Positions 721 to 62,555 of a stretch of DNA of 64,000 bases are shown piece after piece. How positions within the stretch are numbered: position 1 is the stretch's first letter; each line of letters begins with the position of its first letter. The position numbers and the translations under genes are program-made. Under the pieces are notes generated by a model that saw only the letters and a program-made list of their open reading frames with translations, searched no databases and was not told the DNA's origin. The stretch is from an uncultured Candidatus Altimarinota bacterium. Its GTDB lineage: Bacteria; Patescibacteriota; Gracilibacteria; BD1-5; UBA6164. The stretch is taken from assembly GCA_938015455.1 (NCBI GenBank), contig CALLPL010000036.1, positions 9,916 to 73,915 on the forward strand, in the 5' to 3' direction.

Positions 721-904
721 ATAGGTAAGTAAAAACACAAAGCATTTGTATGTGAGTATAGTAGGAAATAACCTTAAGTGAAAGTGAAAAAATAATTGAC
801 TAGTTTTATTTATTATAAATTGATATTTAATATATGGATATAGATTGAAATAAAGTTTAGTATATGTTAAACTACAAAGAGTCTTATATTTTAAACGACT
901 GCAT

Positions 905-1237
905 ATGTCTTCTAATCAAGTAACTGCATCTAATCCAGCTCGAGAAGAAACCCTAAGTGCTGCATACTGAGAGCTTACAAGAAGAATAGAAGATTTAAAC
1001 AGAGAGAGGCTCGCTTTATTAAATGAAAGAGCTCGAATAGCACTAGAAGCTTTTGATTTTACGGCTATCCAGGATAGGATTAACCAGTTAGAAGAATTAA
1101 TAGATACTTTACAGTATCCACATGAAAAAATATGAGCCTCCATCATTCTTATGAACTCTATACTAAAAATAGAGTATTTTAACAATCAGGGGAATAGAGA
1201 TCTACTAGCAAGGCTGCAAGAACTAACAATAGAGTAG
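905..1237 (+). CDS. Hypothetical coiled-coil protein (110 aa)
   Basis: ATG 905, TAG 1235, 2 in-frame TGA. Heptad-like sequence LTRRIEDLNRERLALLNERARIALE. The listed antisense ORF 916..1185 looks like low-complexity noise. Confidence 0.45.
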
Positions 1238-1260
1238 CCAAAATGCTTTGTTCATTTATT

Positions 1261-3402
1261 TTAGCTCATCTCAAATTCGAGTCTGTACCTCGGCATATCA
1301 ACGGATTTTAAAGTAACTGGAACTTCATCTCAAAAATGGAGCTGCTTTTGTGTGGAAGATTGAACGACGCAGTGCTTTTCAGAATCAAACTGATATCCGG
1401 TAAACTCAAAGCTTATGAATCATTCTATGGTGTTTTCGAGTTCTATGAAGAATCCTTTTTCTATCATTCATGATATCTTTCCTGTAAACTGCTCTCCTAC
1501 TTTTTCTGACATATACTTACATGCCATCATATCTCGTACTCGGTACTCCATCTTTTCAGCTCTATCTGAGAGTGAGCTACTCGACATGGCTACCTTTGGG
1601 AGGATCTCTGTATAGTGTTCACGGCGAGCCTGCGATAATCCATTTTTCTGAACCTCTCGACTTCAAACCTCACTCTTGAATTCTCTCTCCTTAGAGGAGA
1701 GAGAGGCTCAATTCGCAGCTTCATTTCTCCTTGAGGAGAAAATTGTATGAGGTTTTGCCTGAGAGTTATTATTTATTATTTCTTTAATTATTCTATGGAT
1801 CTGTAAATCTGGGTATCTACGAATTGGGGAGGTAAAGTGACTATAGTGTTTGATAGCCAGTCCGAAATGCCCAAGGTTCTTGTCGCTATAGCAAGCCTTT
1901 TGTAAGCTCCTGAGTAAAAGCTTTTGAAATGGAGCGAGTTTCGCGTCATCTTTGAGTACTTCTAGAAGTGTTGAAAAATCACTTGGGAATTCACGTGCGT
2001 CCATACTCTCAAGTCTCTTAATAAAAGTATCTACATCCTCTGGGTCTGGCTCTTCATGGACTCTATAGAGAAATGGATATTTTGAAAAGAGTTTTGCTAC
2101 TGATTCATTTGCAAGAACCATACATTCTTCAATGATTTTATATGAATTATATCGTTCGTATCTTTTATATTCTACTGGATTTCATAGATCATCCAGAATA
2201 ATCTTCGTTTCTGGAAAATCAAAATTGAGAGCTCATCTCTCTTTTGTATTCTTTGTAAGTATACCTGTAAGAGACTCTAGGTTTTTAATATTTTTATAGA
2301 GATCCTCAGAAACTACTTCTCAAAACATCAGTTCATCAGATACCCCTATATCTCATGAGAGCATTTCATCTATTTCTTTGTATGTCAGTCTATAGTCAGA
2401 GAGAATTATACTTTCATAGACCTCAGATTTCGTAACTCTTCCAGAAGAAGAAATATGCATCTCACAGGTAAGCGTGAGTTTATCTTCTCAAGGATGTAAG
2501 CTGCACAGTCCGTTAGAGATTTCAGCAGGTAACATCGGAATTACTTGATCACAAAGATAAATACTCGTTCCACGTTTACGGGCCTCTCGATCCAGGTGAG
2601 AATTTTCTGTTGTATAATGCGTGACATCTGCAATATGAACATAGAGTTTCCACCCCCTCTGTCCTTCGGACATCTCCCCCTTATCAAGGGGGAGAATAGA
2701 AATCGCATCATCAAGATCCTTACTTTCTGCTCCATCAATAGTATAAGTCAAAGTATTTCTCAGATCTCTTCTCCCTAAAATATCCTCTGGGTTTATATTT
2801 TTTGAAAATCCATGAACCTGTGACATGACTGAGTCAGAAAAACTCTTTCTCGCTCACATTTCAAAGGCAATCTTATAAATATCTTCTCTTCCCTTTGGTA
2901 AATCATTGAGTGATTCGACTATTCTTCATTCTGGATTTTTTCCTTCCCACTTTATGATTTGTACGGCAACTTCTGATCCATTACTATATCCTCAAATATG
3001 TTTTCCAGGGATGAAAATATCTTTTTGAACTTTCGGGTTATCTGATATGACAAATGCAAACTTTGCTCCTATTTGAAGCTTTCCTACTATGAGCTGCTCT
3101 GATCTTTTGAGAACTTTTGTAATAGTTGCTTCTTCTTTTTCTCTGAAAAATCTTGTGGTAAAAGCAACTTCATCCCCCTCAAAAGCATCAAGCTTTTTAC
3201 TCTCATGGACATAGTATCATTTTTTTTCTCCCTCTGGAGTCACCATATCAACAAAACCAAAGTTTCACTGGCCTTGTTTATAGATACCTATAAGTTCATT
3301 CTCTGTATCTCGTTTTCTCGGAATATTTCTCTTTGGAGTTGAACTGTAAAACGTCTTTTTTTGATGCTTTTTGATGTTTTTCTCTTTCCTCTCTCTTGGC
3401 AT
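1261..3402 (-). CDS. rnr: Ribonuclease R (VacB/RNase II family), 713 aa
   Basis: Continuous only with TGA as sense. N-terminal GQGNFGFVD. RNB motifs DGAESKDLDDAIS, YVHIADVTHY, GTSIYLCDQVIPMLP, LCSLHPGEDKL. C-terminal S1 domain GEQFTGKISGMIEKGFFIELE. TAA at 1261-1263. Confidence 0.92.
1666..1708 (-). repeat. 43-nt palindromic element translated in frame within rnr (ASLSSKEREFKSEV); identical copy at 61821..61863
   Basis: aacctcactcttgaattctctctccttagaggagagagaggct matches 61821-61863 at 43/43. Core hairpin ctctctcctTAgaggagagag. Confidence 0.85.
1724..1741 (-). repeat. Second hairpin unit in rnr (tttctccTTgaggagaaa), read as FSSRRNE
   Basis: Perfect 8-bp inverted repeat, 15 nt from the 43-nt element, inside the linker before the S1 domain. 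Confidence 0.6.
2651..2695 (-). repeat. GC-rich hairpin element in frame inside the rnr RNB domain (ILPLDKGEMSEGQRGW)
   Basis: caccccctctgtccttcggacatctcccccttatcaagggggag. Stems ctccccctt/aagggggag and gtcc-ttcg-gac. Lies between DDAIS and YVHIADV. Confidence 0.65.
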
Positions 3403-3491
3403 TATAATCAGTTTTATAAACTATTTCTCTTAGTATACCAGAAAAAATGTATAAAAAAAGTTTTGACTCCCTTTTGTTTCTAGATATTCTT

Positions 3492-3512
3492 TAGGTGTAA
3501 ATTATACACTTA
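3492..3512. promoter_or_regulatory. Candidate NrtR operator, site A (TAGGTGTA-aatta-TACACTTA)
   Basis: Near-perfect 21-bp palindrome in the rnr / NAD-operon divergent intergenic region. Same half-site as sites B-D. Confidence 0.5.
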
Positions 3513-3625
3513 CTATTGTTCCTTAAAAAATATTGCAGATCTCTGAAAGATATATTTCTCCAAAAAATAGTATATATTGGAAATATTCTTCTCTCACATG
3601 CTCTCTATATTTTTTTGTTTCTTAG

Positions 3626-3646
3626 TAAGTGTATATATTACAATAA
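3626..3646. promoter_or_regulatory. Candidate NrtR operator, site B (TAAGTGTA-tatat-TACAATAA)
   Basis: 117 nt upstream of the ATG at 3763. Left half-site identical to sites C and D. Confidence 0.45.
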
Positions 3647-3762
3647 TTTATTTCTTAACCCCCATACATGCATATATCAAATATAACAAATACAAACACA
3701 ATGGTTGAGAAAAATATTCCTCAACTCTAAATCAAACATCTTATTTTCATAAATTCTTGATT

Positions 3763-4068
3763 ATGAAAGAAATACCAGCACATCAAGTAATCGCAAACTC
3801 TGATACTATGGAGTGAAGGTGAGTACAAGTAGTAGTATGAAACTTCTCTCATGAAAAAGATGCTCTACTAGTAGCTATAGGAAAATGAACCATGTGATGA
3901 GATGCAGATGTTCGGAAAGAAATAATACGAATATTTGATTCTGTCGAAGAATACGAAGATCATACTTGAGATTTCCCAGAAGAAACAGTTAGTGCAATAA
4001 GAAAAAAGGCATTAAGAAAGTTAGATGCAAGAGAACGAAAGATTCTCTGACTTACAGAAGATGAATAA
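3763..4068 (+). CDS. Hypothetical protein (101 aa), first gene of the NAD cluster
   Basis: ATG 3763, TAA 4066, about 8 in-frame TGA. No recognisable family. Confidence 0.5.
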
Positions 4069-34470: not shown

Positions 34471-35343
34471 TTATATAAATAGTAATATAGAAATAATTGA
34501 TAATATTATAACTATTGCTTTCTTCATATTAAAATGTTCTCAGTAAAATACAATAGAGAGAATTATAGGAATAAGAATATAAAAAGAATTAATAGTAAAC
34601 ACTATAGCAAAGTTTCATTCTAATGCTTTTGCGAAGAAAAAATATGATGCTATATGAGTGATTCATAAAACGGTTACAAACAATGTTAAGCCTTTACTAT
34701 TATACGTTTTTCCCTGAATATTTTTCTCATAGAGGTAGGATACCCATGAGAGTAACATCCCTATGGTAAAAGTCATAAAGATAAACAAATCTAGAGAATA
34801 CTCATAAAATGCTACTATCTTTGCACTTGCAACTCCTATCGTCGAAAACAAAACAGTTATTAATAAAAAGATCAGCCCCTGGGACAAATTCTTTTGTATC
34901 TTATTTTCTGTCTTCGTTAAGAGCATGAGAGGAATGCATATACCAATAACTATTCAGAGAGCCTCTTTAAAGGAAAGATATTCTTTAAATACAAATATAC
35001 TGATCATAGTAACCAGTATCGGTCAAAATGTTTTGTATAAGGGAAAGAAGATAACTGTATCAATATTCCTGAGACTCTTTATTCTTGTAAGAACTGATAA
35101 GTTATAAAACAAAGCATTTAAGAAGGCAAAAATACCTACGAATATCAATTCTTCTTTTGGAAATATGATTCAAGTACTTGTAAGATAATATACATATCCT
35201 CACATAAGAATAACTCCTAAGAGGTAGCCTAAAGCGTTCACAAGATTTGGGCTATAATTTCTTTCGATAACGACTTTAAACATAAAGCTATGTACCCCTG
35301 CAGCTAATGCTGAGAGTAAAGCGTAAATAATCCAGGTTTGCAT
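34471..35343 (-). CDS. EamA/DMT-family transporter, paralog 1 of 4
   Basis: 290 aa, about 10 TM segments. MQTWIIYALLSALAAG.., RNIDTVIFFPLYKTFGPI, C-terminus FYGEHFNMKKAIVIILSIISILLFI. Confidence 0.7.
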
Positions 35344-35348
35344 GATTT

Positions 35349-36212
35349 TTAAATAAATAAGAGTATAGAAATAATTGAAAGGAGTATCACTACTCACTTT
35401 TTAAAATTGAAATGTTCTCCATAAAATATTATGGAAAGCATTATTGGGATAAGCAAAGAGAAAGAGTTTATGGTTGTTGCAATAGCAAAGTTTCATTCTA
35501 AGGCTCTAAAGAATGAAAAAGAAGCTCATATAAAAAAGAATCATGAAATAACTGAAAATGTAAATATTCATTCTTCATTATAGAAAACCTTTTTTTTCTG
35601 ACTTTTATAGTATCAATAGGCAGAAAACACTACCCCAAAAAAGAAAGAACAGCTTAAAAACAAATTTATATCAAGGCCAATAGTTACTCAATATTTTTGA
35701 ACTGTTCCTGCTAAAGCAGTCAACACAGAGGTGGCAAGCATAAATATACATCATCTATAGAGATTTCTTTGAATACGATTTTCCGTTTTCGTAATTAAGA
35801 GTAGAGGTATAGATATTCAACATAAAATACCGAGTCACTCCTTAAAGCTCAGGGATTCATTAAAGAATCATAGACTTATGCAGGTTACAATTATTGGTCA
35901 AAAAGCTTTGTAAAGAGGATAAAATATCATTCCATCTATATTTTTCATACTCTCTACACGCGCATGTATGGACATATTATAAAATCCCACAAGAAAGAAT
36001 CCAAGGAGAACTGCTAAGAGAGTTTCTCTTATATCTGATTGAAATCATCCTAAAAACAAAAATACCGAAAATGATATTATGAATCCTATCAAATACATAT
36101 ATAAATTTGCCAGATTTGTATCATAGTTTTTTTCAGCGATCACCTTGAAAGCAAAACTATAAAATCAGGCAAAAAATGCTGAGAGTAATGAGTAAAATAT
36201 CCAAGATTCCAT
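35349..36212 (-). CDS. EamA/DMT-family transporter, paralog 2 of 4
   Basis: 287 aa. MESWIFYSLLSAFFAG.., KNIDGMIFYPLYKAFGPI, FYGEHFNFKKGVVILLSIISILLFI. 5-nt spacer to paralog 1. Confidence 0.7.
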
Positions 36213-36217
36213 AAAAT

Positions 36218-37084
36218 TTAGATAAACAGTAATATAGAAACTATTGAAAGGGCTATAACAATCCCCTTCTTAAGATTGAAGTGTTCTCAATAAAATATTA
36301 TAGAAAGAATAATTGGGATAAGAATAGAAAAAGAATTAATTGTATATGCTACTGCCAAGTTTCCTTGCATAGACATATTATAGGTATAAAAAGCAAAAAA
36401 ATGAATTATTCATGAAACAACAATAAATTTACTAATTCCTTCAGTTTTGTATTTCATCCTCTCTTTTCGATGATGAATCTTGTATCAAAAATATGAAAAT
36501 ATGATTCAAACAAGTGCAGAATACACAATAAATAAATCCATATTCACTAAAAGTACATTTGCAAGTTTTGGAAAAACTGATGCTATAGAAGCCCAAACAG
36601 CAGTGACACAGAGAAAAAAGATTCAGCGAAACAGATTCTTCTGAATTCGTTTTTCGTTTTGATTTATTAGAAGAAGAGGGATAGATATTCCTACAAGGAT
36701 TCAGATTATTTCTAATAATTCTAATGACTCCCTAAAGTATAAAACGCTAATTATAGTAACAATTATTGGCCCAATCGTTTTATATATTGGATAAAAGATA
36801 ACAGTATCTATATTACGAAGAGCATCAACTCGTGATACAACAGATAAATAGTAGAATCAAATATTCCCAAAGGCAATACTAAAAATAAGTCCGTTTTTTC
36901 CTAAGTCCCACTCATAATTTCATACGCATATATACCAAATAAGTGATATGCAAAAAGTAACGGTATAGGAGTAAGTCGTAACAACATACATATCATACTC
37001 TCTCTGAGCAATAACCTTATAAAGGAAATTAAATACTCCCCCAACAATTGCTCACAGGATAGCCCATATTATCCAGCTTTCCAT
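36218..37084 (-). CDS. EamA/DMT-family transporter, paralog 3 of 4
   Basis: 288 aa. MESWIIWAILGAIVGG.., RNIDTVIFYPIYKTIGPI, FYGEHFNLKKGIVIALSIVSILLFI. 5-nt spacer. Confidence 0.7.
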
Positions 37085-37088
37085 AGAT

Positions 37089-37964
37089 TTAAATAAAGAG
37101 TAATATCGAAACTATTGAGAGAGCAATGACTATTCCTTTTTTGAAGTTAAAGTGTTCTCCATAAAACAGTATAGAGAGTATTATTGGAATAAGGATAGAA
37201 AAAGACTGCAGAGTAAATACGATTGCGAGATTTCATGCCATAGCGTGTATAAAAAAGTACATCCCCCCAAAATGTAAAAGTCATAGGATACACCAAAAGT
37301 ATAAGGGAGCTTTTTGCTTCTCTTCTGAGTTTGTGTTATCCTGCTGCTTTTGGAAAAATAGTATCGCTTGAGACAAAATAGTTCCAATTAGAAAACCGTA
37401 CAGTAAAAATGTATCTATATCTAAATTATAAACATGTGCTATCTTTGGCATAGAAGATGCAATCACTGAAACCCCTGCCGTTATAGCTATGAATATAAGT
37501 CATTTAGATAGGTTCTTTTGTATTTTATTTTCTGTTCGTGTTATAAGTAAAAGAGGGACAAAGACTCATACTCATATACCAAGAGCTTCTCGAGGATTTA
37601 GTGATTCTTGAAATAAAAATAAACTTATGAGAGTTATAATAATAGGAGATATTGTTTTATATATAGGATAAAAGATAACAGTATCTATGCTCCTTAAACT
37701 TATTCACCTTGTTATAATTGAGAGAGATAAAAAAGATATATTTATAGTCGTCAGAATTATAAGAAAGGTCGAAGCATTAGATATTACCTCATATAATTTT
37801 CACTGAAATAGTAAAATTCATGAAAATAGTAGGAAACTTATGGCATTTGCATAAAGGTAAAAAAGATTTATGTCGTACTTTTTCTCTACAATTATCTTTA
37901 CCCCAAAATTCGCAAGCCCTACGAGAATTGCAGATAATAGTGCATAAAGTATCCAAAATTCCAT
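37089..37964 (-). CDS. EamA/DMT-family transporter, paralog 4 of 4
   Basis: 291 aa. MEFWILYALLSAILVG.., RSIDTVIFYPIYKTISPI, FYGEHFNFKKGIVIALSIVSILLFI. 4-nt spacer. Confidence 0.7.
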
Positions 37965-37968
37965 AGGG

Positions 37969-38859
37969 TTACTGATTTTTTGTTATATGGTGCATTGCAA
38001 CAATATCCTCTACTGAGCAGCCTCTAGAGAGATCATTTGCTGGCTTTGCGAGTCACTGGAGCGTTGGACCAAGAGCGACGGCTCACCCGAGTCTCTCTGT
38101 GATTTTATAAGCGATATTTCCTGAATCAATATCTGGGAATATGAAAACATTAGCTGGTTCTTTGAGGGTTGTTTTAGGATTCTTACGAAGACCAATTTCT
38201 GGTATGAGTGCCGCATCAAACTGTATTTCTCACTCGATAGGAATGTCTCAAAGTCCTTCGTCTTGTAGTTTATTCCTGAGTAAGTCGGTTGCTTCTCTAA
38301 CTTTGAGGACCTTTTCATGCTCACCTCAGCTTCACGCAGTTGAAAATGAGAGCATAGCAACTCGAGGTTCTATACCATATTTTAGAGCGCTTTGCACTGT
38401 GAGAAGTCATATCTCAGCGAGCTGTTCTACTGTTGGATCTATTTGTATTCCTCAGTCGCTATAGAGGAATAACTCCTCCTCTCGACCGAAGAGAAAGTGT
38501 GATGAAAGTCTTTTTACTCCCTGCGCTGAACCTACGTTCTTTATAAGGGCTTTAACGATACCAGAGGTTGTTGTAATATTTCCTCATAGAAATCAATCTA
38601 CTTCCCCATCTGCGAGTTTTTTTGCTGCAAAAACCTCATTTTCTATTTCGTCAGGAACTTTAAAATATTCAAGCCCCTCATCAATAAGCTTCTTATATCT
38701 TTCAAGTTCATCTGATTTTCAGCAAATTACAGGATTTTCTCAAGCATCTTTGAGTTTTGAAACAGCTTGAAAAATTCGTTCATCATCAATATCAGGATAA
38801 ATTATTTTATATTCTTTATTTTTTTCAGAGAGATTCTTGAGAAGTTGCGTGAGATTCAT
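37969..38859 (-). CDS. pta: Phosphate acetyltransferase (short form)
   Basis: DGFLGGNITTT, YSDGGIQIDP, PRVAMLSFSTAGSG, FIFPDIDSGNIAYK, ANDLSRGCSVEDIV. 296 aa. Confidence 0.82.
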
Positions 38860-38918
38860 AATAATACTTTAGAAAATATTATATGAGTATATGTAAAAAT
38901 TTCAAGGAACCAAAAGCT

Positions 38919-40596: not shown

Positions 40597-41910
40597 ATGC
40601 CAAAGGACGAGTCACAGCAAAACTTGAGTGAAGAAGAGCTAAAAGAGGCTGTCATCGCTGAAGAACAAGAGCGAGAATATCAATCTGATAGCTTTAAAAA
40701 AATTGAATCGCAGGTAAAAGACTGACTTGCAAAGCAAGCAACCGATGATGTACTTAGGGATATCTCTGTTGGAGCAATGTTTATATGAAGCTCTGATGTT
40801 CATTACGAGTGTTTTGAAGAGTATGTCGTTGTGAGGTTTCGAATCGATGGAGTTCTCGTTGATATTTTTAGACTTACACATGCTCAGTATAAAAAGATAG
40901 TAGAGAGACTCAAATACTCATCAAACCTCAAGCTTAATATTTCAAATATTCCTCAAGATGGGAAATATTCTCTCAAGATAGAGGAAAACAAAAAAATAGA
41001 TGTCAGAGTTTCTACTCTTCCTATAAAATATTGAGAAAATATTGTGTGTCGTATACTTGATTCCAGTAAAGCAGCAATAGATTTCGAAGACCTATGATTT
41101 TTCTGGACTTCTAAAAGAATGCTCAATAAAGCTGTAAATAAAAAAAGCTGACTCATACTCGTAACTGGGCCAACTGGTTCTGGTAAGACTACCACGCTCT
41201 ACACGATGCTCAACAGACTCAATACGCGAGATAAAAAGATAATCACCCTCGAAGATCCAATAGAATATGAACTCGAATGAATAGTCCAAGGAGAGATAGA
41301 TGAAAAAAATGGATTCACATTTCACACAGGACTCAAAGCCTGCCTCAGGCAAGATCCTGATGTCATCATGGTCTGAGAGATACGTGACCTTGATACACTC
41401 CAAACTGCTACGGCAGCCTCTCTTACAGGTCACCTCGTACTCTCGACGCTCCATACAAAGTCAGCTGCAGATACTCTTGATCGTATTATCAATATGGGTC
41501 TCGCTCCCTACATTCTTGCCTCGGCTCTGGATACCATCATAGCTCAGAGACTTGTTCGCCGGATATGCCCAGATTGTAAAAAAATCAAAGAAAAAACTCC
41601 TCAGGACGTTGCAATCATAGAATCTATGATGAAGGAAACAGGTATGTCCGTCCTCCCAACGGAGCACATGAAACTCTATGAAGGATCAGGATGTCCGGAG
41701 TGTAACAACTCGGGCTTCAAATGACGAATTGGTATCTATGAAATCATCACTCTCACAGAAAAGATTCGTGATATCATTCGAAAGTGAGGATCAGTAGAGC
41801 AAGTTATCCACGAAGCTCGAAATGGTGATCTCATCATGATGAAGGAGGACGGTATCCTCAAAGCTCTTAAGGGATATACGACTATTGGGGAAATACTGAG
41901 AGTGGTATAA
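40597..41910 (+). CDS. Type IV pilus / type II secretion ATPase (PilB/GspE family)
   Basis: Walker [20 protein letters not shown], Walker [26 protein letters not shown], zinc motif CPDC...CPEC, GRIGIYE. 437 aa. Confidence 0.9.
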
Positions 41911-44416: not shown

Positions 44417-47400
44417 TTATTTTTTCATTATTTCTTGAGCTATCCTATATTGAAGAAGCTGTAATATTGAAGTAAGCTCTTCATTATCTTGATGCTCTGT
44501 AAGTTTTTCATCAATTCTTGCATAAATTGTATACAGGGAGTCTAATCGCTCAGTATCATCTGGTATAGCACGAAGTTTCGTTATGAAGCTCTGTACCTGA
44601 CGCTTATATTGTGTATCTATATCAAGAATATTTTTCTGATCTGGTTCTACAGGACTTTGTGCGTTTTCTATGTACTTCGCTTTTATGATCCATCGTCCTT
44701 CTACTCATCCAATAGGAGTACAGGTAAAGAGTGTAAGATTCTTCCCTTCTCATGGGGTAAGAACTGATGTATCACTTGCTGGAGTATTGTACGAAGCCTC
44801 TGTTACATACTTGTACTGTGAGTATCATCCTGATGCATTCTTTTCATAGACCCAGACTTCTTCCCCAACATCTAGTTCTATAATCTTTTGGAAGTGTGTC
44901 TTATATCTTCACTCTGAGTCTTTCCAATACGAGCTATGAGCGAAAACTACCTTATTCCCTACTTCACCATATCCTCTCGTACTGGTTCCTGGGTACTCAA
45001 GAGCACCGGTTCTGAGAGCTGGATTAATATTTCCTTCTCGGCCATTAATCATCGTATCAAAATCTTTTGAGTCTGATCCAAATTCATTAATTGGAACCAC
45101 AAGACCATTTGATGGAACTACGATATATTTCTGCGCGTTTCTGTCTTCTTCTACCAGTACTTGTTTCCAATGATTTACATCATTGTTCGTAGATCCTGCA
45201 AGACGGAAAGTATCTGCTGATGGAAGCTCTGTAGCTACTCGTGAGTTTGGCTTCGTTTCTATTCTATCTGAAATTGGAGTCCCGGTTCTTGGAAGTTCTT
45301 TTGGAAGAGCTTTGAGAAGCGATTCTCATTTAATTGTTTCTTCTTGAATTTGTTCCTCAATAAGTGCTTCAAGTATATCTTCATACTCTGCTACTTTCTT
45401 TGTAATCTCAGTATCATATTTTTCTTTGAGTTCTTGAACGTTTACTGAGTTAGTAGAATTTATAGGAGCCGAAGGAGCAGAGTTAAGCAGCGGTGTTGAT
45501 GTTCATAAAGGAGTAATGATCGGAGCAGGAAGAGTTGAAGACTCTAGAGGAGTAATAGTAGGATTACTTCTCGAAGAATGACCTCCTCAACTACCTCAAC
45601 TTGAAGATCATGATATAGTTGGGGCAGCAACATACTCCACTACAGTATAATCATTGCTTGCATCACTATCTGTTGTATTATCTCCATTTGGAGTTTCTAT
45701 TTCTCCCGGGTTAGATATAGGAGAACCTGATCTATCCGTAGCTGTATCTGAAACATCACTTGTAGGTCATGCTACACTTTGAGCGATGACTGTAGCAGTA
45801 TTTTCTACAAATCATGCTATGACATCTGGTTGAAAAAGTGAATAGCTTCCTGTGAAGGTAAGCGTGTCTGTTGCTCCAACTGCAAGCGTTGCAATAGGTC
45901 AACCATTTACTGTTATAAGAGGATCTGTTACTACAATATTTGTAAGATCTATATTTCAAGTATTTACTACCTTAAACGTATAGCTTATTGTTTCTCAAAA
46001 TTCTGCCTTTCAGTCATTATTTTCATCATTAAATACTCAGGATTTATAGAGTTCAATTTGAGGAATCTTTTCTATCAGGTAGCTTGTTGGGTCCTCTGTT
46101 GTATCTCCTGTATTATTTGCATAAACAGCAAGTGGGTTATCAGTTTCTGTAGTATCTGGATTACTCACAGAGCTCGTATCCGGAGCAGTCCCTGTATCTG
46201 AAATATCCTCTACTACTGTTCCATTTGGATCTGTACCACTCACGCTTGCGGTATTTTCTATTCCTCAAAAATTAACATCATCTTGAGTCAATACATATGT
46301 TGCTGAATAGTTTACCGAGTTTGTGTGATCAGGACCTATAACAAGGACTGGAGAACCCACTAATACCATACCTGGAAGTGAAGTATCTGTAAGTGTAACG
46401 TCACTGAGAGTAACATTCCCTGTATTAGTAATCTCGAAATTATAACTTACTGTATCTCCTGCTCAAATGATCCCATCCTCTGTTGTGTCTACTACACTCG
46501 AAATAGATTTGATAAGTCGTATATCTGGATTAGGTGAAATAAGGTAACTTGTCGGATCTTCTGTAGGATCACTTCCATTATTTGGATGTGTATCCAAGGG
46601 ATTGTCTGTCTGAGTTCCATCCGGATTAACTATAGTAGTTCCATCTGGAGTAGTTCCTGTATCTGATGTATCTCCTACTATCATATCATTCGGGTCAGTT
46701 CCTGTCACAATTGCAGTGTTTTCTATTCATCCAGCATCTACATCTGCCTGAGTCAATATATAACTCGCTGTATAATTTGTTGTATTTACGTTATTTGGAG
46801 CCATAGTCGGAACTGGACCACCTACCAGAACAAGTCCTGGGAGTGAAGTATCCATAACCGTAACATCACTGAGTGTAACATTCCCAGTATTTGTAATCTC
46901 AAAATGGTAATTCACTGTATCTCCTACTCAGATAACTCCATCTTCTGTTGTGTCTACTACACTCGAGATAGATTTGATAAGCTCTATATCTGGAATAGGT
47001 CATACAGGTTTTGTAACTTCATCTACTGCATCATCTAATATTCCTCATAATGGTGTCCCAGTTGCTGTAGCAATATTAACAACCTCTCCATCATCTGCTT
47101 CAACTTGAGTTACGGGGATACTTGTACAGCTATATTCCCACTGTTCCAAAGGAGAAAGAATATTATCTGAATTAGCATCCGTGTTTGTATCAAGCGTAGG
47201 TCATGAGGTACATTTTTCATCACTCAAGTTAACGAAAGATATAGGCAGATCTCCTGTATTCGTAAGAATAAAAGTATAATCTAGAGTATCCCCTGCCTTC
47301 ATTGGTGTTGATGTTGTTGCCTTTTCAAGAGTCCAACTGGGTACTCATGTAAAGTATCAGAAGTCTTGATCATTATTATCTACTAAGTCTATAACTACAC

Positions 47401-50400
47401 CATCATCATTTTCTATTTCTATAAGGGTATGGGTTGATGTATGTGGTGTTCCAAGTCCATCTGCATCATAGCTTTGAAATGTGTCTACTGGAAGAGTGCT
47501 AGGATCAACTTGTACTTGATATAATCCTACGGGGAGATTATCAAAGAGATATTCTCCATTTGCATCAGTTTGAACCGTATATGGAACTGCCCCTGTGTCA
47601 GACGCAGAAACTACCATCCCCGTAAGAGGATCCACATATATCGGATCACCTGCTCCATCAAGAAGATTTAATGTCACTCATGAAAATGCTCACTCAGAGC
47701 TATCTTGTATTCAATCAGCATTTTCGTCATTCCATATATAGTTTCCTATACTCCCTAGTGGAGTGTAATTATATCAAAAATCTTGATCTTCATCGTCCTC
47801 TACTCAGATGATATTTCAAACAGCATCTGCTTCAAGATCTAAAGTTGTATCAGAAATATTAGAACTTCCAAGACCATCTGAATCATGGGTCTGTTCAGCT
47901 CATGCAGGAAGAGTACTTGGATCAATAGATATTTGATAGTCTCACTGTGGGAGATTTTCAAAGCTATACTCTCCATTTACATCAGTTGTAGCTGTGTATG
48001 GAACAGCTCCTGGAAAACTCGAGTCCACTATTGCTCCTGTGACAGGATCTACATATATTGGATTACCTGATCCATCCAGAAGATTTACTACTACTCATTC
48101 AATACCTGGTTCTCCTGAATCTTCGATTCCATCTCCATTGAGATCATACCAAATAGTATCTCCAATACTCCCACTTACAACCGTAACACTCACATCATTA
48201 GAAATAACATTTAGAGAAATCTCTTTAATCCTTCCTCAAAATGTATTGGTATATACATCTCATGTTGAAAGGTCTGTAACTTTTCCTTCTGAGTCTATAT
48301 CAGGTGTTCCACCTATATTTCCAAAGGGAGTAAGTTCGAGAGAGACTATCTGTCATCCAGCGTTCGCCGCAATATTTCCTGTGACAAATTTAACAGCTGT
48401 TATATCTTCTGGAACTATAGTTCAACATGTTACGGGAGTCGTAAGACTTGAACATGTTTGCCAGTTAGTTGTTCCCGTTCACTGCGTTCATCCACCTGGA
48501 AGTGTACCTCCATTATCCATATATACCTGGTAACATAAATCTCATGAAGCCGGAGTATATCCATTTGGGAGATTATCAGCACTACAGGGATCTTGAGAGA
48601 TACTTGTAGGATTAACATCTGTTGCATAAAATATCTCTCCATTAGAAGAACTTATATTTGTAAGAGTAAGAGATCCATTAAAAGTAGTTGAAGGATCTCT
48701 CGTAGAGTTTAAACCTGAAGTAATTCCTCCATTACCATCGTCGTGGTATGGGAGAATATCAATAAATTCTCCTTCGCTATAATCCTCTCATCATAAGTTT
48801 TTGTAAACAAGGTCATAAGTAAATGGAGTATTTGTACTCTGAACATTATTAGAAACGGTCTTAAATACATCAAAACCATATTCAGGAAGTATTGTGAGCT
48901 GATATGTCGCACTGGCTGAGTCTGAAAAACCATCTCCATCTTGATCTGCTCAAATATCACCAGTAATCACAGCTGTATTAGTAAAAGACCCGGAAGTACG
49001 AGATGGATCTGCTTGTACACTATATTTTATAAGTGGGAGCTGTTCCCCTGCATCAACACTTCAAAAGTTCCAAATCAAAGGATCATCAAATCATTGATGT
49101 TGAGAACTCGTAATGGTTATATCTGGGCTACTTGCATCATAGTCTGTTCTGTTGAGCCAAGTACTTCCTCCATCTATACTAAACTCTTCACTTCCAGCTA
49201 CATAGTCTGTTCCATTTGGGAGATTATCATTTACAGTTGCTGTATTAATAGTGTTATTCCATAGTCATAAAACTTGAGGAGTGATAATAAAATCTATGAT
49301 ATCCCCTCACCTAATAACCTTTATTCCCTTAGGGGATGTTTCTTTTGCTACTGAGTGATTTGAAGGAACGAGAATATTACGATCTGCAAATGAAGAAGAA
49401 AGACTAAAGTTTACGGCCTCAGGATCATCTACAACAGAAGTATCTAAAGTATTTCTCCAAGTACTAAACTCTGATCCTGGTCCAGTATCAAACCTGTAGG
49501 TCATGTATGACGCAAGGTAGTTATTAGAACCGTATCAGCTTGTTAAACCATCTTGAACCTTAACATTATAGTTTGTGGTGATTCCATAGTGAGTATGTGC
49601 CGGACTTGCAGCTAATGCAGCAGGCTTGTCATAATATGATTCCCATCGAACTTTCGAGATCGCTGATCTAGATCAAGTAACCATATCAGGGTCTTCCCAC
49701 CAATCGACTGTTCCTGTAGTTGGATTTCAATTTTCGTCAACTAGACTTCATGACATATTCATTATTACAACAGAACTATCACCATTAACATCATCATCAC
49801 AAAAGTCTTCTTTGAGTTCAGTGAGGGTCGCATGAGAATCGTTTGAGTATAAATATTTACTAAATGGTGAGGTATCAAAAAATGCCGTAGAAACACCAGG
49901 AAAATAGGCAACTCCATTCGGGTTTGTTGGACCATGATTCCATCAGTATCATAAATCTGCTCGAGGTGCAGGAGATAATCCTATATATTCATATTTCGTT
50001 AGATCAAGTTTTGTACATGTTTGAGATCTAGCACCATCAATGGTTCTGTAATCAAAAACATTATTCATAATGGCTACTGTCTCTCCTGCAGATACATATT
50101 GTTCCTGCTGTAGCTTATGGCTAGTCCCCCAAGGCATTTTAAAGTGACTCATATAAGCAGAATAAGTTCCTGGAGATGAGTAGGTCATTACAAAACTACG
50201 AGTCTGATCCGTAAATGATGGCTCTCAAGATCCGTTATAATTGAGAAGATTATTTTCTCCTACATCTTCTGTTGAAATAGGGTTAAATCATAATATTGAT
50301 CATGAACTATAGGTTCATACTGAGTTTATAACATAGTTCTCACAGCTTGGACAACTTTGATGCCCATCAATATCAGGAGTTCGAGGAAACCATAAATTTA

Positions 50401-51478
50401 TTGCTACTTCTATAAGATTACTATCATTATCAGGATCTCTTACATCAATATTATCTAGATCTATAGTAATATTTGGATCATTTACTCCATCAGGAACAAA
50501 CGAGGGTCCTGTAAAATCCCCTGAAACACTGTCTTGGGTACATGAAACAGTTGCGTTTGCTCCATGATCCCCTATAAGAGAACATCCAGGATCTAGTCCC
50601 CAAGTATATAAGATACCTCCAGTAGAGAGATCTCCTCCACTTCCAGAAGTATTGTTGTTATCATTGTTATCTGTATAGAAGTCCAATAAGTCATAATCAA
50701 CTTCAAAGGTTATTTCATCAGAATCAGCAACCATAGATCCTTTTTCATATGTTGCTTTTATTACATACTCCATAAGTACTCACTGTTCCCCACTTGGTCA
50801 ATCTTTCAAAGGAGGATCATAAACAACATCCACATTTCCATCTCCATCTGTGTCTACATCAGGTACTTTAAGATCTTTTGTAGTATTTACACGAAAATTT
50901 GCTGTTACTATAGTATCTTCACTTGTATCGCTTGCAGCAATCGATCCATCTCACTGAGATGAAACACTCGCGCTCACCCTATCGTCGTTGAGAGTTATCT
51001 CGCTTCCGTCAGCTGATGCTCCAATCGCTCTTGCAGCTGGAAAAAATATCCTATTTGTTCCTTCGATTGCAGGTCATAGATTACAAAAGAGTGTTGTCTT
51101 ATCTATTGAAATAGTTGATATATTCGCAACAATCGCTGGATCTGTCTGACATCATGATGGAATCTCTATCCATGCCTGTTTACTATCAAGCTGAACGGTT
51201 GAAGTCAATTCATTCACATCATTGTCATTTATAGAAACCTCAACCTTATACGTAATAGAATCTTGAAGTCTCGTAACATTATTTTCTTCATCTTCATCAA
51301 ATCCAGCTGTTGCTAGGTCATTTCCATCCCAAGTAACACCAAGGTCAAAAGGTTCTGATCAAGTTTTAAAAACAGAAATCGTAGTATTTACCACAGGAGT
51401 TGCAGCATATATGGCAGAAATAGGAAGAATCCCCCACACAAGAGTTATTAGTAATGTAGAAGATGTTAAACGTTTCAT
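44417..51478 (-). CDS. Giant secreted repeat adhesin (2353 aa) with a C-terminal sortase domain
   Basis: ATG 51478 to TAA 44417, with no TAA/TAG in frame (checked triplet by triplet) and dozens of TGA. Signal peptide [25 protein letters not shown]. SdrD/Cna-B-like units ([22 protein letters not shown]). DUF11-like units ([20 protein letters not shown]). S/G/P linker. Sortase motifs [21 protein letters not shown]. Confidence 0.75.
45990..47010 (-). repeat. Tandem 465-nt (155-aa) coding repeats inside the giant gene
   Basis: tgttgtgtctactacactcga at 46481 recurs at 46946 (offset 465). Protein units ...[21 protein letters not shown]...TGTDPN...EDPTSYLI. Confidence 0.8.
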
Positions 51479-51587
51479 ATATACGAATCAAAAATATAAA
51501 TATCCTTACTAGGATAATATACTTTTAAAAGTATGTAAAAGATAGCAGCTACTATTCGTTTTACATAGCTGATTGTTTAGGTATAAA

Positions 51588-55603: not shown

Positions 55604-55668
55604 AAAAAAATTATTTATATAATATATACAAGTATAATAAGAGTTTTTTGTAATACAATTGTAAGAAC

Positions 55669-56781
55669 ATGTTGAAAAAATTCCCATTCTCCGAACTTCA
55701 TGAATGGTACCAGCAAAATGGTCGTCACGATTTGCCCTGGAGAAACTATAGTTTCGATAAAAAGACACGAGGCTACAGGGTCTGGCTCGCAGAGACCATG
55801 CTCCAACAAACACAGGTAGACAGAGTAAAGTCATACTTTGAGAATATCCTAAAGGCATTCCCAACTGTCGAAGTTCTCGCTGCCTGTTCCTATGAAGATT
55901 TCTTTCCCTACTATAAATGACTGGGTTACTATTCTCGGGCTCGAAATATGCTCGCAGCAGCACAAATGATCGTGGATGACTTTGGCTGAGTATTCCCTGA
56001 CTCCACCAATGATCTCAGGGAGCTTCCAGGAGTAGGACCCTACACCGCAGAAGCTATAAGAGCCTTTGCCTATAATTATCCAACTCTCTCGTTTGATACC
56101 AATCTCGAAAAAATCTTTTCTCGCTATTATTTTGGAAACAAGTTCCAGAAACTCAGCAAAGATAAAAAGTCTCAGATACTAAGGGATTTCGAGAAATCAG
56201 GAGTTTCAGGAAGAGATATCAACAACGCTCTCATGGATTACGGAGCAACGGTATCGCTCAACGCGATCAAAAATATTAACTGGGACAACTATCCCCTCCC
56301 CTCTTCAAAGTTTTACCAGACTCGCTGAGAGCTTGAACCAATTCCCGAAAAAAAGAAATCAAGTTTTCCAAATAAGCAGGCTCATGTGATAGCAATCCTT
56401 CATAAGGATCATAAGATGTATTTTGGAGCTCCACCCCATCCAACTTCCCCTTATCAAGGGGAAGAGCAAGCTGCAGCTTCGTCCCTCCTTACTAAGGAGG
56501 GAATTGAGGGAGGTTTTACCCCCTTCCTCATCTGAAAAAATACCTGAAATCCTCGGGCTATGATCCAGGAATATTTCCTCAAAGAGTATCATCTCGAACT
56601 TTCGGTTCGACCTCCTGAGGTAAAGTCGTATAATAACAAGGATATTCCCTATATGCTATGCTATTGCCAGATACAATCTGGAAACCACGATTTTCAGTCG
56701 TTTGAAGGAATCAAAGTCAGGTGATTTGAGGAGGGATATGTCGAGGAGATGGAGTTTGGAGAAAGTTTGAATTTGTTTTAA
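55669..56781 (+). CDS. mutY: A/G-specific adenine DNA glycosylase (MutY) lacking the usual Fe-S cysteines
   Basis: DLPWR, YRVWLAETMLQQTQV, GLGYYSRARN, LPGVGPYTAEAIRAFAY, NNALMDYGA. No Cys where CX6CX2CX5C is expected. 370 aa. Confidence 0.8.
56437..56530 (+). repeat. Cluster of GC-rich palindromic units translated in frame inside mutY (APPHPTSPYQGEEQAAASSLLTKEGIEGGFTPF)
   Basis: ttccccttatcaaggggaa, aagctgcagctt, tccctccttactaaggaggga. GC-rich against an AT-rich gene. Confidence 0.65.
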
Positions 56782-59504: not shown

Positions 59505-60881
59505 TTATATAAAACTCGTTATTCCTATCACCACAAGTCCTACTACTATTGAAAACATAAAGCTTCCCATAACCTTTTTTCCAAAGGTCTTGTCTCCAAA
59601 CCTCCAGGCAATCGATCCCTTTACGAAGTTATTGGACATCACGGCTAGGAGGACAGTGCTTGCTGCAACGGAGAATGTTATGAGTCAACGGTCTGCGTCT
59701 ACAGCCATAGTTTGAGTAACAGCATCAACATCCGCGAGTCCTGAGATGATTCCGAGAGCTGAATAGAAAAGACCCTCTCCCCAGATATCTTTGTAGATAA
59801 TCCCGACTCAAGAGATAAATTTTATAATGACGATAATTCCAGCAAACTGCAGCGCCGGGACAATACGAAATGGACTACGAACATTGTTCTCAACTGTTGC
59901 TTGTTTCTTCGCATTTTCCTTGGTTGATCTCCAGTAAAAGTATCCTGTTGCAAGAAGGAAAGCAAGAAACATTGCTCATCCAGGAAGAATGATTGCTCAC
60001 AGGAGTGAAGCAGAGAAGACTCCTACTATCGCAAATACTCTCAGGAACATGATACATGAAGCAAGAAGTGTTCCTACAACATAAGAGTTACTATTTTCTG
60101 GATCTTCTTTAGATTTTTGTGTCATGCTCGCGGTTGTCGCTGTTGAAGATACGAGTCAACCAAGTATAGATGAGAGCATAATTGAGGAGTTTTTTTCTAC
60201 AAACTTTGTGAGAATATACCCAAAATAAGAGACTCCTGACATCACTACAACAAAGAACCAAATAGAGTAGGGATTAAAAAACGCAAAACTAGTCAGTGGA
60301 TGATCTACTCAACTTCCCGAGATAAAACTCATGATATCAGAGAGTGAAAAACGCTGATTTGGGAGGAGTGGAAGTATCACAAAGGCTATAGCTCAAAACT
60401 TGAGCGTTGTTCGAAGCTCGTCCTTACTCACGAGCTTCCCTACTCCCTCGAGCAGGTCTTTTGAAGAGATAAAGAAGGTCAACATAATCGCAAAGATAAT
60501 GGCAATTTGCGAGTAGCCGAGGAATACCATGACTCCTACAAAGTAGGTCAGAAATGCCACAAACTCAGTTGCTGGAGAGATAGCTTTTTCCTTGAATACA
60601 CTATAGATATAGTAGGTAGATATGAGGATCGTCGTGATCATGAGACCCGCAAGAATAAATACATATTCTGTTTGCAAATAGCTATCAAACCAGGTCATCA
60701 GTGATCCAAATATCGCGATAAGTGCAAAGCTCCTGATAGATCAAAACTGCGCGTCTGAGCGAGTCTTAGAGAGCAAGCTCCGCTTATGCTTTACGATATC
60801 TTTGTCTATTCAAATCAAAGCTCAGAGGACTCCTGAGAGCAAGAAACCAAGAAAGATATTTTGGAGAGTTGAGATGTCCAT
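59505..60881 (-). CDS. MgtC/SapB-like plus DUF4010 membrane protein (458 aa)
   Basis: LGALIGIDKD...FGSIRSFALIAIFGSL. Many TM segments. Frame scanned and stop-free down to TAA 59505. Confidence 0.55.
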
Positions 60882-60965
60882 TGTTTTGTAAAAAGAAAAA
60901 TATTTTGAGTAGTATAAGTATTTTCGAGTAAGAAAAAAGGATCACTATCTTGCAGAACTTTCCTT

Positions 60966-62555
60966 TTATAGTTTAGAGAGAAATTTTTCTTTCAGTTCTT
61001 GTATTTTTTCAATATCTATTTTTTCGAGATTTTTTACTACGAATTGTTGTCGTCATTTTTCAAAGGTTTCTTTGTTATCTGATACGAAGTTCCAGTAGAG
61101 ATAGTTGTAGGGACATGCATTGTCTGTGTATTTTTCTTTTGGATTATATTTGCAAGACTTGCAATAGTCTGACATCTTGTTTATGTAATTTGCGGAAGCA
61201 ACGTAGGGTTTTGTTGCGAGTTTTCCTCCGTCTGCAAATTGGCTCATTCATAATACATTTGGAGTGACTACCCACTCAAAGGCATCGGTATAATATTCAA
61301 AAAACCAATGATTAAGTTCATGAGGATCGAGATTTGTGAGGAGTGCAAAGTTTCAGATAATCATGAGTCTCTGGATATGATGGCTCATATTTTCTGATTG
61401 AACTTGTTTGAGAGTAGTTGAGAGACAATTCATATCAGAATTTTCTGCATTCTTCCAGAAATACTCTGGGAGAGGATTTGTGTGTCCTAGAAAATTTTCT
61501 CAGTAAATATCATCTTTATAGCATTGAAAGAAGTGATACATATATTCTCTCCATCCGAGAACCTGCCGAATAAATCATTCTTTATTATTCATCGCTGTAT
61601 CTGTTTCTTCTACAGCTTTTGCAACTTCTCGAGGAGACAAGAGTCCGTAATTAATAGAACTTGAGAGCAGACTATGATGCACATAGGCATCGTCCTGATA
61701 CATCGCATCTTCCAGTCTCCCAAAATTATCTAAATGATTCTCGAGAAAGTAGTCTAGGAGTTTTAGAGCTTCTTGTCTATTTGTTGGGTATATAAAAACT
61801 CTTCTCGATTCCCCTCACAAAACCTCACTCTTGAATTCTCTCTCCTTAGAGGAGAGAGAGGCTACTTTCTGAGTTTCATTTGTAGATTGTCCCCTCTCCT
61901 TGAGGAGAGGGTTAGGGTGAGGTTTTTTATAATACTCCTCAGCTTCTTTCCAATACTCATTTTTCTCAAGTTCAAAACTCCAGCTTCACTCATGTTTTCG
62001 GTCAAACTTTCTATTTTCTTTATCATAATTCCATTCTCATCACTCGGGTTTTCCTTCCTTCGTCATGAGGATATCCTCTCTCTTCCTCATGAATCTATAA
62101 AAATATTCCATGATGGGAGGCTTTGTATATTGCTTTTTGAAATCATCGTGAGAGAGAAAAAAACTTTCTGTATCTTCTGTAAAAGTTAGAGTAATATTTT
62201 CTTGCTTCAGTCTCTGCTGAATTTTCTGAAAATTTTGAAAGACATAATTTTCTACTGGTTTCACAATAACAAATTCTGAAACACCATGCTGTTTTGCATA
62301 TTTTTGTATTCCAGAAATAAAGCTCTTTTCTATATAAAACTCAGCTATCTTTCAATGATCTTTCAAAGCATCTATAATCTGCTTTCCACCTGCGTAGTCT
62401 ATTATTTTACTGTGAGTATTGAGATTCAACTCTCTTCCCTGAAAAAGTATCTTTCATATATTGTGAATATATAAAAAGTGAGTATAGTCTGTATATAAAT
62501 ACTCTTCTCTGAGTTGATTATATAAGATTATTTGGCATATCGTCGTATCCTGCAT
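60966..62555 (-). CDS. Photolyase-related protein (DPRP / FeS-BCP-like), 529 aa
   Basis: ILYNQL N-terminal domain, FGRLEDAMY, HHIQRLMIIGNF, YINKMSDYCKSCKYNPKEKYTDNACPYNYLYWNF (CxxC-x12-C). Frame scanned. Start uncertain (ATG 62555 or internal). Confidence 0.7.
61821..61863 (-). repeat. Second copy of the 43-nt palindromic element, in frame (ASLSSKEREFKSEV)
   Basis: 43/43 identical to 1666..1708, in the same orientation relative to its host gene. Confidence 0.85.
61889..61922 (-). repeat. Adjacent GC-rich hairpin unit, in frame (PHPNPLLKERGQ)
   Basis: gtcccctctccttgaggagagggttagggtgagg. Stem ccctctcc/ggagaggg. Confidence 0.65.

Follow-up and report, generated by a model that had tools for sequence, protein, structure and literature searches.

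How does one palindromic stretch of DNA come to be read in frame, as the same peptide, inside two unrelated genes? The question is raised by a 64-kb stretch of DNA (hereafter the window, 64,000 nucleotides in full), whose protein homologs carry the label Candidatus Gracilibacteria and in which the 43-mer AACCTCACTCTTGAATTCTCTCTCCTTAGAGGAGAGAGAGGCT lies both in the ribonuclease R gene (rnr) and in the gene for a deoxyribodipyrimidine photolyase-related protein (DPRP). Our results make it probable that the 43-mer is the terminal module of a non-autonomous mobile element of ∼90–110 nt, similar to a miniature inverted-repeat transposable element (MITE), that is derived from, or mobilised in trans by, relatives encoding a DUF559 nuclease. 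A first-pass annotation of the window had likened the repeat to the Rickettsia palindromic elements (RPEs), and this likeness is supported as one of behaviour, not of homology: most of the copies found lie in frame in unrelated genes, and the insert is polymorphic among orthologs.

The element and its two host genes

The window has a G+C content of 35% and is TGA-recoded, with open reading frames (ORFs) of at least 150 aa covering 4.1 kb under translation table 11 and 81 kb when TGA is taken as sense. The 43-mer occurs exactly twice in it, at 1666–1708 and 61821–61863, and no further match with up to three mismatches was found in the window, with none expected from 100 shuffles. The identity of 43 nt reported by the first-pass annotation extends in fact to 44 of 44 nt (1665–1708 and 61820–61863). 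The two copies are encoded on the minus strand, share one phase and fall within long ORFs under code 25 (TGA = Gly), and both are read, as had been proposed, as ASLSSKEREFKSEV, which corresponds to residues 566–579 of RNase R and residues 232–245 of DPRP. The identities given to the host genes agree with the Pfam domains of their homologs. The two hosts, the two copies and their parts are as follows.

1261–3402, minus strand: host gene 1, ribonuclease R (rnr), 713 aa with 15 in-frame TGA codons; homologs with Pfam RNB, OB_RNB and CSD2
60966–62555, minus strand: host gene 2, DPRP, 529 aa; homologs with PF04244
1665–1756, minus strand: copy 1, inside rnr, 92 nt between the outer inverted-repeat ends; read KPHTIFSSRRNEAANGASLSSKEREFKSEV, RNase R residues 550–579
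1665–1708: unit A of copy 1, comprising terminal repeat AAACCTCAC, linker TCTTGAAT, hairpin A and GGCT; identical to 61820–61863
1682–1704: hairpin A of copy 1, stem TCTCTCTCCT, loop TAG, stem AGGAGAGAGA; 10-bp stem
1724–1756: unit B of copy 1, comprising hairpin B, linker and terminal repeat TGAGGTTTT (1748–1756, pairing with 1665–1673)
1724–1741: hairpin B of copy 1, TTTCTCC TTGA GGAGAAA
61819–61926, minus strand: copy 2, inside the DPRP gene, 108 nt; read KPHPNPLLKERGQSTNETQKVASLSSKEREFKSEV, residues 211–245
61837–61859: hairpin A of copy 2, 10-bp stem and 3-nt loop
61892–61911: hairpin B of copy 2, CCCTCTCC TTGA GGAGAGGG

The similarity between the copies runs past the 43-mer and takes in a terminal inverted repeat as well as the second hairpin. 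This gives a unit of about 92–108 nt, of which the 43 nt first taken for the element are only one arm. The second hairpin reported at 1724–1741 is real and has its DPRP counterpart at 61892–61911. In each copy, terminal inverted repeats (AAAACCTCAC...GTGAGGTTTT) bound two inverted hairpin units; these repeats are perfect over 10 nt in the DPRP copy of the window and over 12 nt in an orthologous copy from another metagenome-assembled genome (MAG; L032). The linker of unit A, TCTTGAAT, is 8 nt long, that of unit B is TTAGG, and the variable spacer between the units holds a small central palindrome, GCTACA...TGTAGC, in many copies. When either strand is folded as single-stranded DNA, the terminal repeats form a closing stem that carries the two hairpins (z-scores −3.7 to −5.7). 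The element had also been called GC-rich, which holds relative to the host genes (41–44% versus 35–37% G+C) but not in absolute terms.

Two further resemblances in the window were discarded. Matches to the terminal-repeat motif at 40832/40924 and 5798/5983 are due to chance and mark no elements, and a possible third module to the left of 1665 and 61820 (CTCTCGACTT versus CTTCTCGATT) is probably coincidental, since the DPRP stretch aligns with the host sequence FESKF in orthologs.

Repeats can mislead assemblers, and a chimeric join made in assembly or binning would be one account of such a pair; we found nothing specific in its favour and consider it already refuted. On either side of each copy the reading frame continues and the flanking homology is undisturbed. 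The rnr copy is reproduced in an independent ENA contig from a separate assembly (L038, 99.97% identity to window positions 796–3662, element included), and the DPRP copy recurs at the orthologous site in another two MAGs (L014 and L032). The recurrence of the element in independent assemblies thus disposes of the artefact that the first-pass annotation had named as a possible refutation.

Both inserts are polymorphic among orthologs, as the annotation had proposed to show by alignment. The rnr insert is missing from ∼40 orthologs in an alignment of 47, including the closest (P0002 and P0003, 81% identity over ungapped columns), and its net length relative to the closest empty ortholog is ∼41 aa; it is present in P0001, a same-strain RNase R in which TGA is rendered as W; the TGA codons at 1708–1710 and 1663–1665 lie inside or border it. 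The DPRP insert is missing from P0122 (77% identity) and from ∼45 other orthologs, which read EEYY-DFESQF-IYPTN. In the window, L014 and L032 the DPRP element directly follows EEYY, that is, it occupies an orthologous site, and in the window the TGA codon at 61815–61817 lies directly outside it. One ENA sample, ERZ6864290 (L031 and L038), holds both the window strain, with the element in rnr, and a different Gracilibacteria organism in which the DPRP site is empty.

Placement on the RNase R structure, also suggested at the outset, is consistent with insertion at a position that the fold tolerates. The alignment to the solved structure from B. subtilis (8cdu) breaks at the insert, with query residues 546–588 falling between chain residues 578 and 581. 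In the AlphaFold model (mean predicted local distance difference test score, pLDDT, 85) the insert forms a low-confidence helix-turn-helix (pLDDT 46–74) between confident flanking helices (pLDDT >90). In DPRP the insert position corresponds to an inter-domain loop.

Copies in other genomes and how they are read

Further copies were sought with a 21-mer from hairpin A in GTDB species genomes and with a 23-mer from the left arm in JGI metagenomes. The first scan returned single copies in three Gracilibacteria MAGs (L009, L013 and L014) and the second 14 loci, of which ∼11 are distinct; two scans of viral-contig DNA, one for the hairpin and one for the left arm, had no match. A profile search added diverged copies, several per contig at some loci. 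The resulting collection holds 12 full-length copies along with half copies, the elements measuring 90–112 nt. When aligned, they have the terminal repeats, the linker and both stems in common, with loops that vary freely (TTAGA, TCTAA, TTAA, TCAA, TCGA, TCAAA, CTTGTG, TTTGCA and others). The count of copies in related genomes and metagenomes that had been called for therefore yields more copies, mostly in frame in unrelated genes.

About 14 independent insertion events can be distinguished, 11 within long TGA-readthrough ORFs and three intergenic or at the 3′ end of a gene. As checked with Pfam, the 11 in-gene hosts are RNase R, DPRP, a MiaB-like radical-SAM enzyme, DnaE (at two different sites), methionyl-tRNA formyltransferase (Fmt), a class I aminoacyl-tRNA synthetase, a polysaccharide pyruvyl transferase, malic enzyme, RecG and RecQ. 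The hosts are thus many and unrelated housekeeping genes of Gracilibacteria, and the copies occupy loops or linkers that tolerate an insert. At some loci several hairpin inserts are nested or adjacent within one host, with at least three in Fmt of L027 and at least five profile matches across the 7.9-kb RecQ locus (L025); this suggests that the elements insert into or beside one another.

None of the 11 in-gene copies contains a stop or shifts the frame of its host. Splicing or bypass would free an element from this constraint, and the open frames therefore strongly imply that the in-gene copies are translated as an extra surface peptide. If so, junction-spanning peptides such as ...NGASLSSKEREFK... 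would be expected. Three frames are used: ..SLS..EREFKSEV in seven events, PLSPGGERIQEGG in three and KPHSGILSPLQEKEAAK, in the opposite orientation, in one. The latter two contain TGA read as Gly, and reading TGA as Gly opens frames that are closed under the standard code, with two to four of the six frames open per copy under code 25 versus zero to two under code 11. Of the 11 in-gene copies, 10 are oriented alike with respect to their host gene (two-sided binomial p ∼0.012). We have high confidence that these are translated insertions of a selfish, mobile type.

The shared peptide might instead be taken as a selected protein module that both genes have acquired, such as a linker or an interaction motif, given that two proteins carry the same 14 aa and that seven events use that frame. 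We find this highly improbable. Other hosts read the same DNA in two other frames, so that three unrelated peptides arise from a single sequence; the loop residues SSK become LEE in the DPRP ortholog of L014, with the stems unchanged; and the insert is of low confidence in the structure model. Peptide searches of 1.8 and 5.8 billion proteins produced no significant family: an exhaustive phmmer search of 1.84 billion representatives with the 36-aa peptide had no match, although a query this short is too weak, and an element-peptide profile run against 5.8 billion proteins returned three tiny fragments only and did not recover the known hosts.

Conservation lies instead in the nucleotides. Outside the loop, unit A of the orthologous DPRP copies is identical at 41/41 and 40/41 nt, while the host genes are 74–78% identical overall and 53–60% identical at third codon positions; near-identity of unit A despite such divergence at third positions argues for constraint at the level of the nucleic acid. 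The loop of hairpin A in L014 is the exact reverse complement of that in the window, with identical stems, which amounts to a small inversion of the hairpin loop (TTAGA versus TCTAA, window 61837–61859 compared with L014 and L032). Compensatory changes affect four of 31 consensus pairs, all of them in hairpin B, which was selected by no search pattern and whose stem occurs as CTCTCC/GGAGAG, CTTCTCC/GGAGAAG and TTTCTCC/GGAGAAA. These comparisons point to a constraint that acts on DNA or RNA and not on the peptide; protein-level conservation in the absence of nucleotide conservation, which the first-pass annotation had named as grounds for rejection, is the reverse of what is seen.

A further alternative is that the modules are a functional structured RNA, akin to the Whalefall-1 motif, kept within mRNAs for a role in stability, ribosome pausing between domains or protein binding. 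Whalefall-1 is Rfam RF01762 (Weinberg et al. 2010, PMC2864571). Each unit aligns with it end to end, over the first hairpin (UCUCUCC-loop-GGAGAGA) and the conserved 3′ tail AGGGUGAGG, with scores of 24.7, 19.7 and 26.5 bits; the 24.7-bit match is that of hairpin B of copy 2 together with TTAGGGTGAGG. The compensatory changes in hairpin B, the conservation of unit A as nucleotides and the common orientation of the in-gene copies would also fit such a role. Every score is, however, below the gathering score of 37, a threshold reached at no locus, and the 24-nt middle hairpin of the motif is missing, its place taken by a linker of 3–8 nt. The two units face opposite ways, so only one of them is present in the sense orientation in any transcript; moreover, closely related orthologs of essential genes differ in whether they carry the element, and some copies are intergenic. 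We therefore judge a conserved RNA function to be very unlikely, and by its score the element is not a Whalefall-1 member. The two have in common that they are known solely from uncultivated organisms, and they differ in that the units described here lie within protein-coding genes and are paired head to head. A scan at the Rfam gathering level found one tRNA only in the window and nothing in 20 loci. Matches to miRNA precursors reflect long palindromes only.

DUF559 genes and recurrently occupied loops

The RecG and RecQ copies connect the mobile element to a nuclease gene. RecG of L024 carries a 442-nt in-frame insert whose N-terminal side is a B-like unit, whose middle is a DUF559 domain (PF04480, E = 1e-28) and whose C-terminal side is an apparent half element. 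The ends of this insert form imperfect inverted repeats of ∼42 nt (ACCTCAC, linker, hairpin), and its right end is identical to unit A of the window at 41 of 43 positions. It lies between helicase motifs I and Ia of this superfamily 2 helicase. RecQ of L025 has a similar DUF559 insert (E = 2e-34) along with a separate ordinary small element. A Pfam search of the two inserts found no Hint/intein domain, and a splicing domain is not to be expected, given that only ∼60 residues lie outside DUF559, not enough to form one. The sole ORF of the inserts is DUF559, and they yielded no transposase domain. Further matches of the DUF559 domain are to PDB 3hrl (E = 2e-11) and to NCBIfam PRK09767, and it has the conserved E.DG..H core.

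A small hidden Markov model (HMM) located three further DUF559 ORFs in the retrieved loci. The Gracilibacteria-type contig L018 offers the most direct evidence. On it, a free-standing DUF559 gene of 132 aa stands between TAATCCCTCCCC-linker-TACTCCCTTTGGAAAAGGGAGAT and the inverse of that module. The same contig carries a miniature element of 140 nt (3807–3950) whose ends match those of the DUF559 element at 46/46 and ∼49/51 positions, together with more solo hairpins. Judging from these ends, the pair stands in the classic relation of autonomous element and MITE, in a sister family of the one in the window. Inverted hairpin units also flank the DUF559 genes of L007, a Patescibacteria MAG, and L034, an IMG/VR contig. 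Two DUF559 ORFs lie within loci of the Patescibacteria MAG JBAZWO01.

Hairpin elements of other types occur as well, in some cases repeatedly in one loop. Those in the window are listed here.

2650–2700, minus strand: second, different hairpin unit in rnr (site 2), TCTCCCCCTTATCAAGGGGGAGA at 2673–2695, a small hairpin and a GAGGGGGTGG tail
56434–56516, plus strand: superfamily member with two hairpins in a MutY-like (HhH-GPD) gene (55654–56781), read PPHPTSPYQGEEQAAASSLLTKEGIEGGF; weak nhmmer match to the family profile (E = 0.0012)
677–718, intergenic: solo unit of the sister family, TAATCCCTCCCC, 12-nt linker, hairpin TACTCCCTTT/TAC/AAAGGGAGAG

The unit at rnr site 2 adds 8 aa (LPLDKGEMSEGQRGW) and is missing from most orthologs. 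It is also found in P0007, with near-identical DNA (L029, 2695–2791), and local nucleotide identity at the site is 0.88–0.91 versus ∼0.68 across the gene. P0007 is not a sister lineage, so common ancestry alone is insufficient to account for the sharing, and site 2 could be a conversion tract or the target of site-specific parallel insertion. The MutY-like ortholog in L014 (3714–3827) has a wholly different two-hairpin insert at the same position. The loop at rnr site 1 holds different hairpin elements in P0007, P0022 and P0041, as does the DPRP loop in P0121, P0135, P0137, P0146, P0159 and P0161. The solo unit at 677–718 closely resembles the ends of the DUF559 element and of the miniature copy of L018.

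Each module combines the terminal repeat CCTCAC with a linker of 8 nt and a polypyrimidine/polypurine hairpin in subterminal position, and the element consists of two such modules in inverted arrangement, able to fold into a closing stem with two hairpins. In the proposed mechanism, the small elements would be internal-deletion derivatives of DUF559 elements or be moved by them in trans. The DUF559 nuclease, a Vsr-like PD-(D/E)XK enzyme, may act on the hairpin ends or on empty sites, and spread may proceed by homing-like gene conversion and, now and then, by transposition to a new site. The preference for one orientation and one frame would then reflect descent from full-length elements whose nuclease is made by read-through within the host protein; the predominant frame is that of the DUF559 read-through in RecG and RecQ. 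A homing component would explain both the filling of identical sites in non-sister orthologs (rnr site 2 and P0007) and the repeated hits on the same loops by different hairpin elements.

Several observations weigh against this model or limit it. The DUF559 association is based on five loci, which is why our confidence in mobilisation by DUF559 is only moderate. Different hairpin elements in one loop (rnr site 1, DPRP and MutY) are unexplained by simple random transposition. Comparison of empty and filled DNA established neither a target-site duplication nor an exact insertion boundary, with a possible CAG at rnr and nothing at DPRP, the orthologs being highly diverged. The case for translation is made from open frames only. 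Conservation of the left arm among the metagenome copies is in part a selection bias, the scan having demanded an exact 23-nt left arm; the terminal repeat and linker are still near-identical in the GTDB copies, which were found via the hairpin.

The nesting of DUF559 could equally be produced by a homing gene that invades the centre of a pre-existing palindrome. The small elements would then be RPE-like relics or mobile palindromes with an unrelated mobiliser, for which DUF559 is a secondary occupant of a habitat and not a source. The DUF559 ORF does lie exactly at the centre of the element, beside the palindrome GCTACA...TGTAGC. DUF559 is classed with Vsr and with the EDxHD homing endonuclease I-Bth0305I, and enzymes of this group are known as homing endonucleases (PMC3424549, PMC9403480). 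Two of three DUF559 genes on viral contigs have no hairpin flanks, and the small HMM detected no DUF559 gene within the 64-kb window. On the other hand, versions that carry DUF559 between matching ends are found for two different families of ends, the CCTCAC and the CCCTCCCC type, and inverted units bound free-standing intergenic DUF559 genes too. We accordingly regard secondary invasion as an unlikely alternative to small elements derived from or mobilised by DUF559 elements.

Known systems and further hairpins

RPEs are in-frame palindromic repeats of ∼100–150 bp (Ogata et al. 2000, 2002, as summarised in a MITE review, PMC10969869). The Gracilibacteria elements are comparable in length (90–112 nt), occur in multiple copies, lie in frame within many unrelated housekeeping genes, likewise add a translated peptide where the host fold allows it, to judge here by the open frames, and inhabit the small genomes of host-dependent bacteria. 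They differ from RPEs in belonging to another phylum with another genetic code, in which two of the frames need TGA = Gly, in having clear terminal inverted repeats, two self-complementary subterminal hairpins and one arm strongly conserved as nucleotides, and in having nuclease-bearing full-length relatives. We know of no autonomous partner or mobilising enzyme for RPEs. With Gracilibacteria as hosts, the element is supported as an analogue of RPEs in behaviour, not in homology, and is not filed as a member.

With bacterial MITEs such as Correia, Nezha, QMITE and ERIC (PMC10969869) the elements share small size, multiple copies, no coding capacity of their own, terminal inverted repeats, a long foldable palindrome and ends in common with a longer protein-coding element. 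Such a longer coding element with the same ends was found (L024 and L018); a recognised transposase as partner was not, the presumed partner being a DUF559 PD-(D/E)XK nuclease of ∼110–130 aa in place of an insertion sequence with a DDE transposase. A further difference is that most copies lie in frame inside genes, while typical MITEs are found mainly between genes. As to a target-site duplication, the diverged orthologs show at most a possible CAG at rnr.

The nuclease itself invites comparison with EDxHD/Vsr-like homing endonucleases such as I-Bth0305I (PMC3424549, PMC9403480). They share the DUF559 domain (PF04480; 3hrl), in-frame residence in conserved genes of DNA metabolism (RecG and RecQ here) and identical sites that recur in non-sister orthologs within a tract of locally raised identity (here rnr site 2). 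In contrast, the nuclease described here has no surrounding intron or intein (Hint) domain and is bounded by hairpin-bearing inverted repeats, with miniature derivatives that lack the nuclease. In the REP/REPIN-RAYT system (Bertels and Rainey 2011, PMC3116915), two inverted short palindromic units likewise form a larger hairpin and a single associated gene is flanked by units, but REPINs are extragenic and associated with a Y1 (IS200-like) transposase, whereas the elements described here are mostly intragenic and associated with DUF559.

The hairpin of the present elements, flanked by GTGAGGT or ACCTCAC, occurs at least nine times in JBAZWO01 (CCCCCTCTCTCCTTAGAGGAGAGAGGGGGTTAGGGGGAGTGAGGTAGG; L001, L003, L004, L007, L008, L010 and L012) and once each in two Nostoc loci (L002 and L006) and in an Ignavibacteriaceae MAG (L011), so the hairpin unit type may be cross-phylum. 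The small dispersed repeats of Nostoc reportedly are tiny hairpin repeats, nested in one another and present also in genes, as described by Elhai et al. in 2008. The likeness consists of two matches, L002 and L006, which carry a near-identical CCTCAC-linker-CTCTCTCC TTAGA GGAGAGAG unit; we know of no DUF559 link for the Nostoc repeats. Full-text literature searches on palindromic or in-frame repeats of Gracilibacteria and on DUF559 turned up no description of this system.

What is supported is a family of RPE-like, MITE-like in-frame elements in code-25 bacteria, with DUF559 as the candidate engine. Tentatively, one may go further: it is possible that DUF559 nucleases drive an unrecognised class of mobile element with hairpin-bearing inverted-repeat ends, widespread in Patescibacteria and perhaps present in Cyanobacteria and Ignavibacteria, and that in TGA = Gly Gracilibacteria these elements and their miniatures spread in frame into the coding regions of essential genes, the nuclease being made within the host protein with neither intein nor intron. 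On this wider reading the Whalefall-1 RNA, for which a related terminal module in a recoded organism is a possibility, would be such a module misread as non-coding owing to the alternative code of its host.

To our knowledge, protein-coding palindromic repeats have for 25 years been treated as a Rickettsia peculiarity whose mobilising enzyme is not known. If the model is true, RPE behaviour occurs also in an unrelated, recoded, host-dependent phylum and has a concrete candidate engine in the DUF559 nuclease, with miniature and full-length elements of shared ends. It would also assign a role to a domain of unknown function that is very widespread, could allow an orphan Rfam motif to be reinterpreted and would indicate how reassignment of a stop codon to sense widens the room for selfish DNA in genes, a copy having zero to two open frames under the standard code and two to four under code 25. 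In practical terms, the inserts inflate and fragment gene calls in MAGs of the candidate phyla radiation and can mislead ortholog alignments.

The window holds other repeats and one other hairpin. Five tandem paralogous ORFs of ∼300 aa each lie at 34471–38868 on the minus strand, with a period of ∼870 nt and 64–73% nucleotide identity between copies, and a giant ORF of 2363 aa at 44417–51505, also on the minus strand, contains internal repeats (for example 46074–46838). The ORF at 59505–60944 contains a hairpin of another type at 60413–60438, GAAGCTCGT CCTTACTC ACGAGCTTC, with a 9-bp stem.

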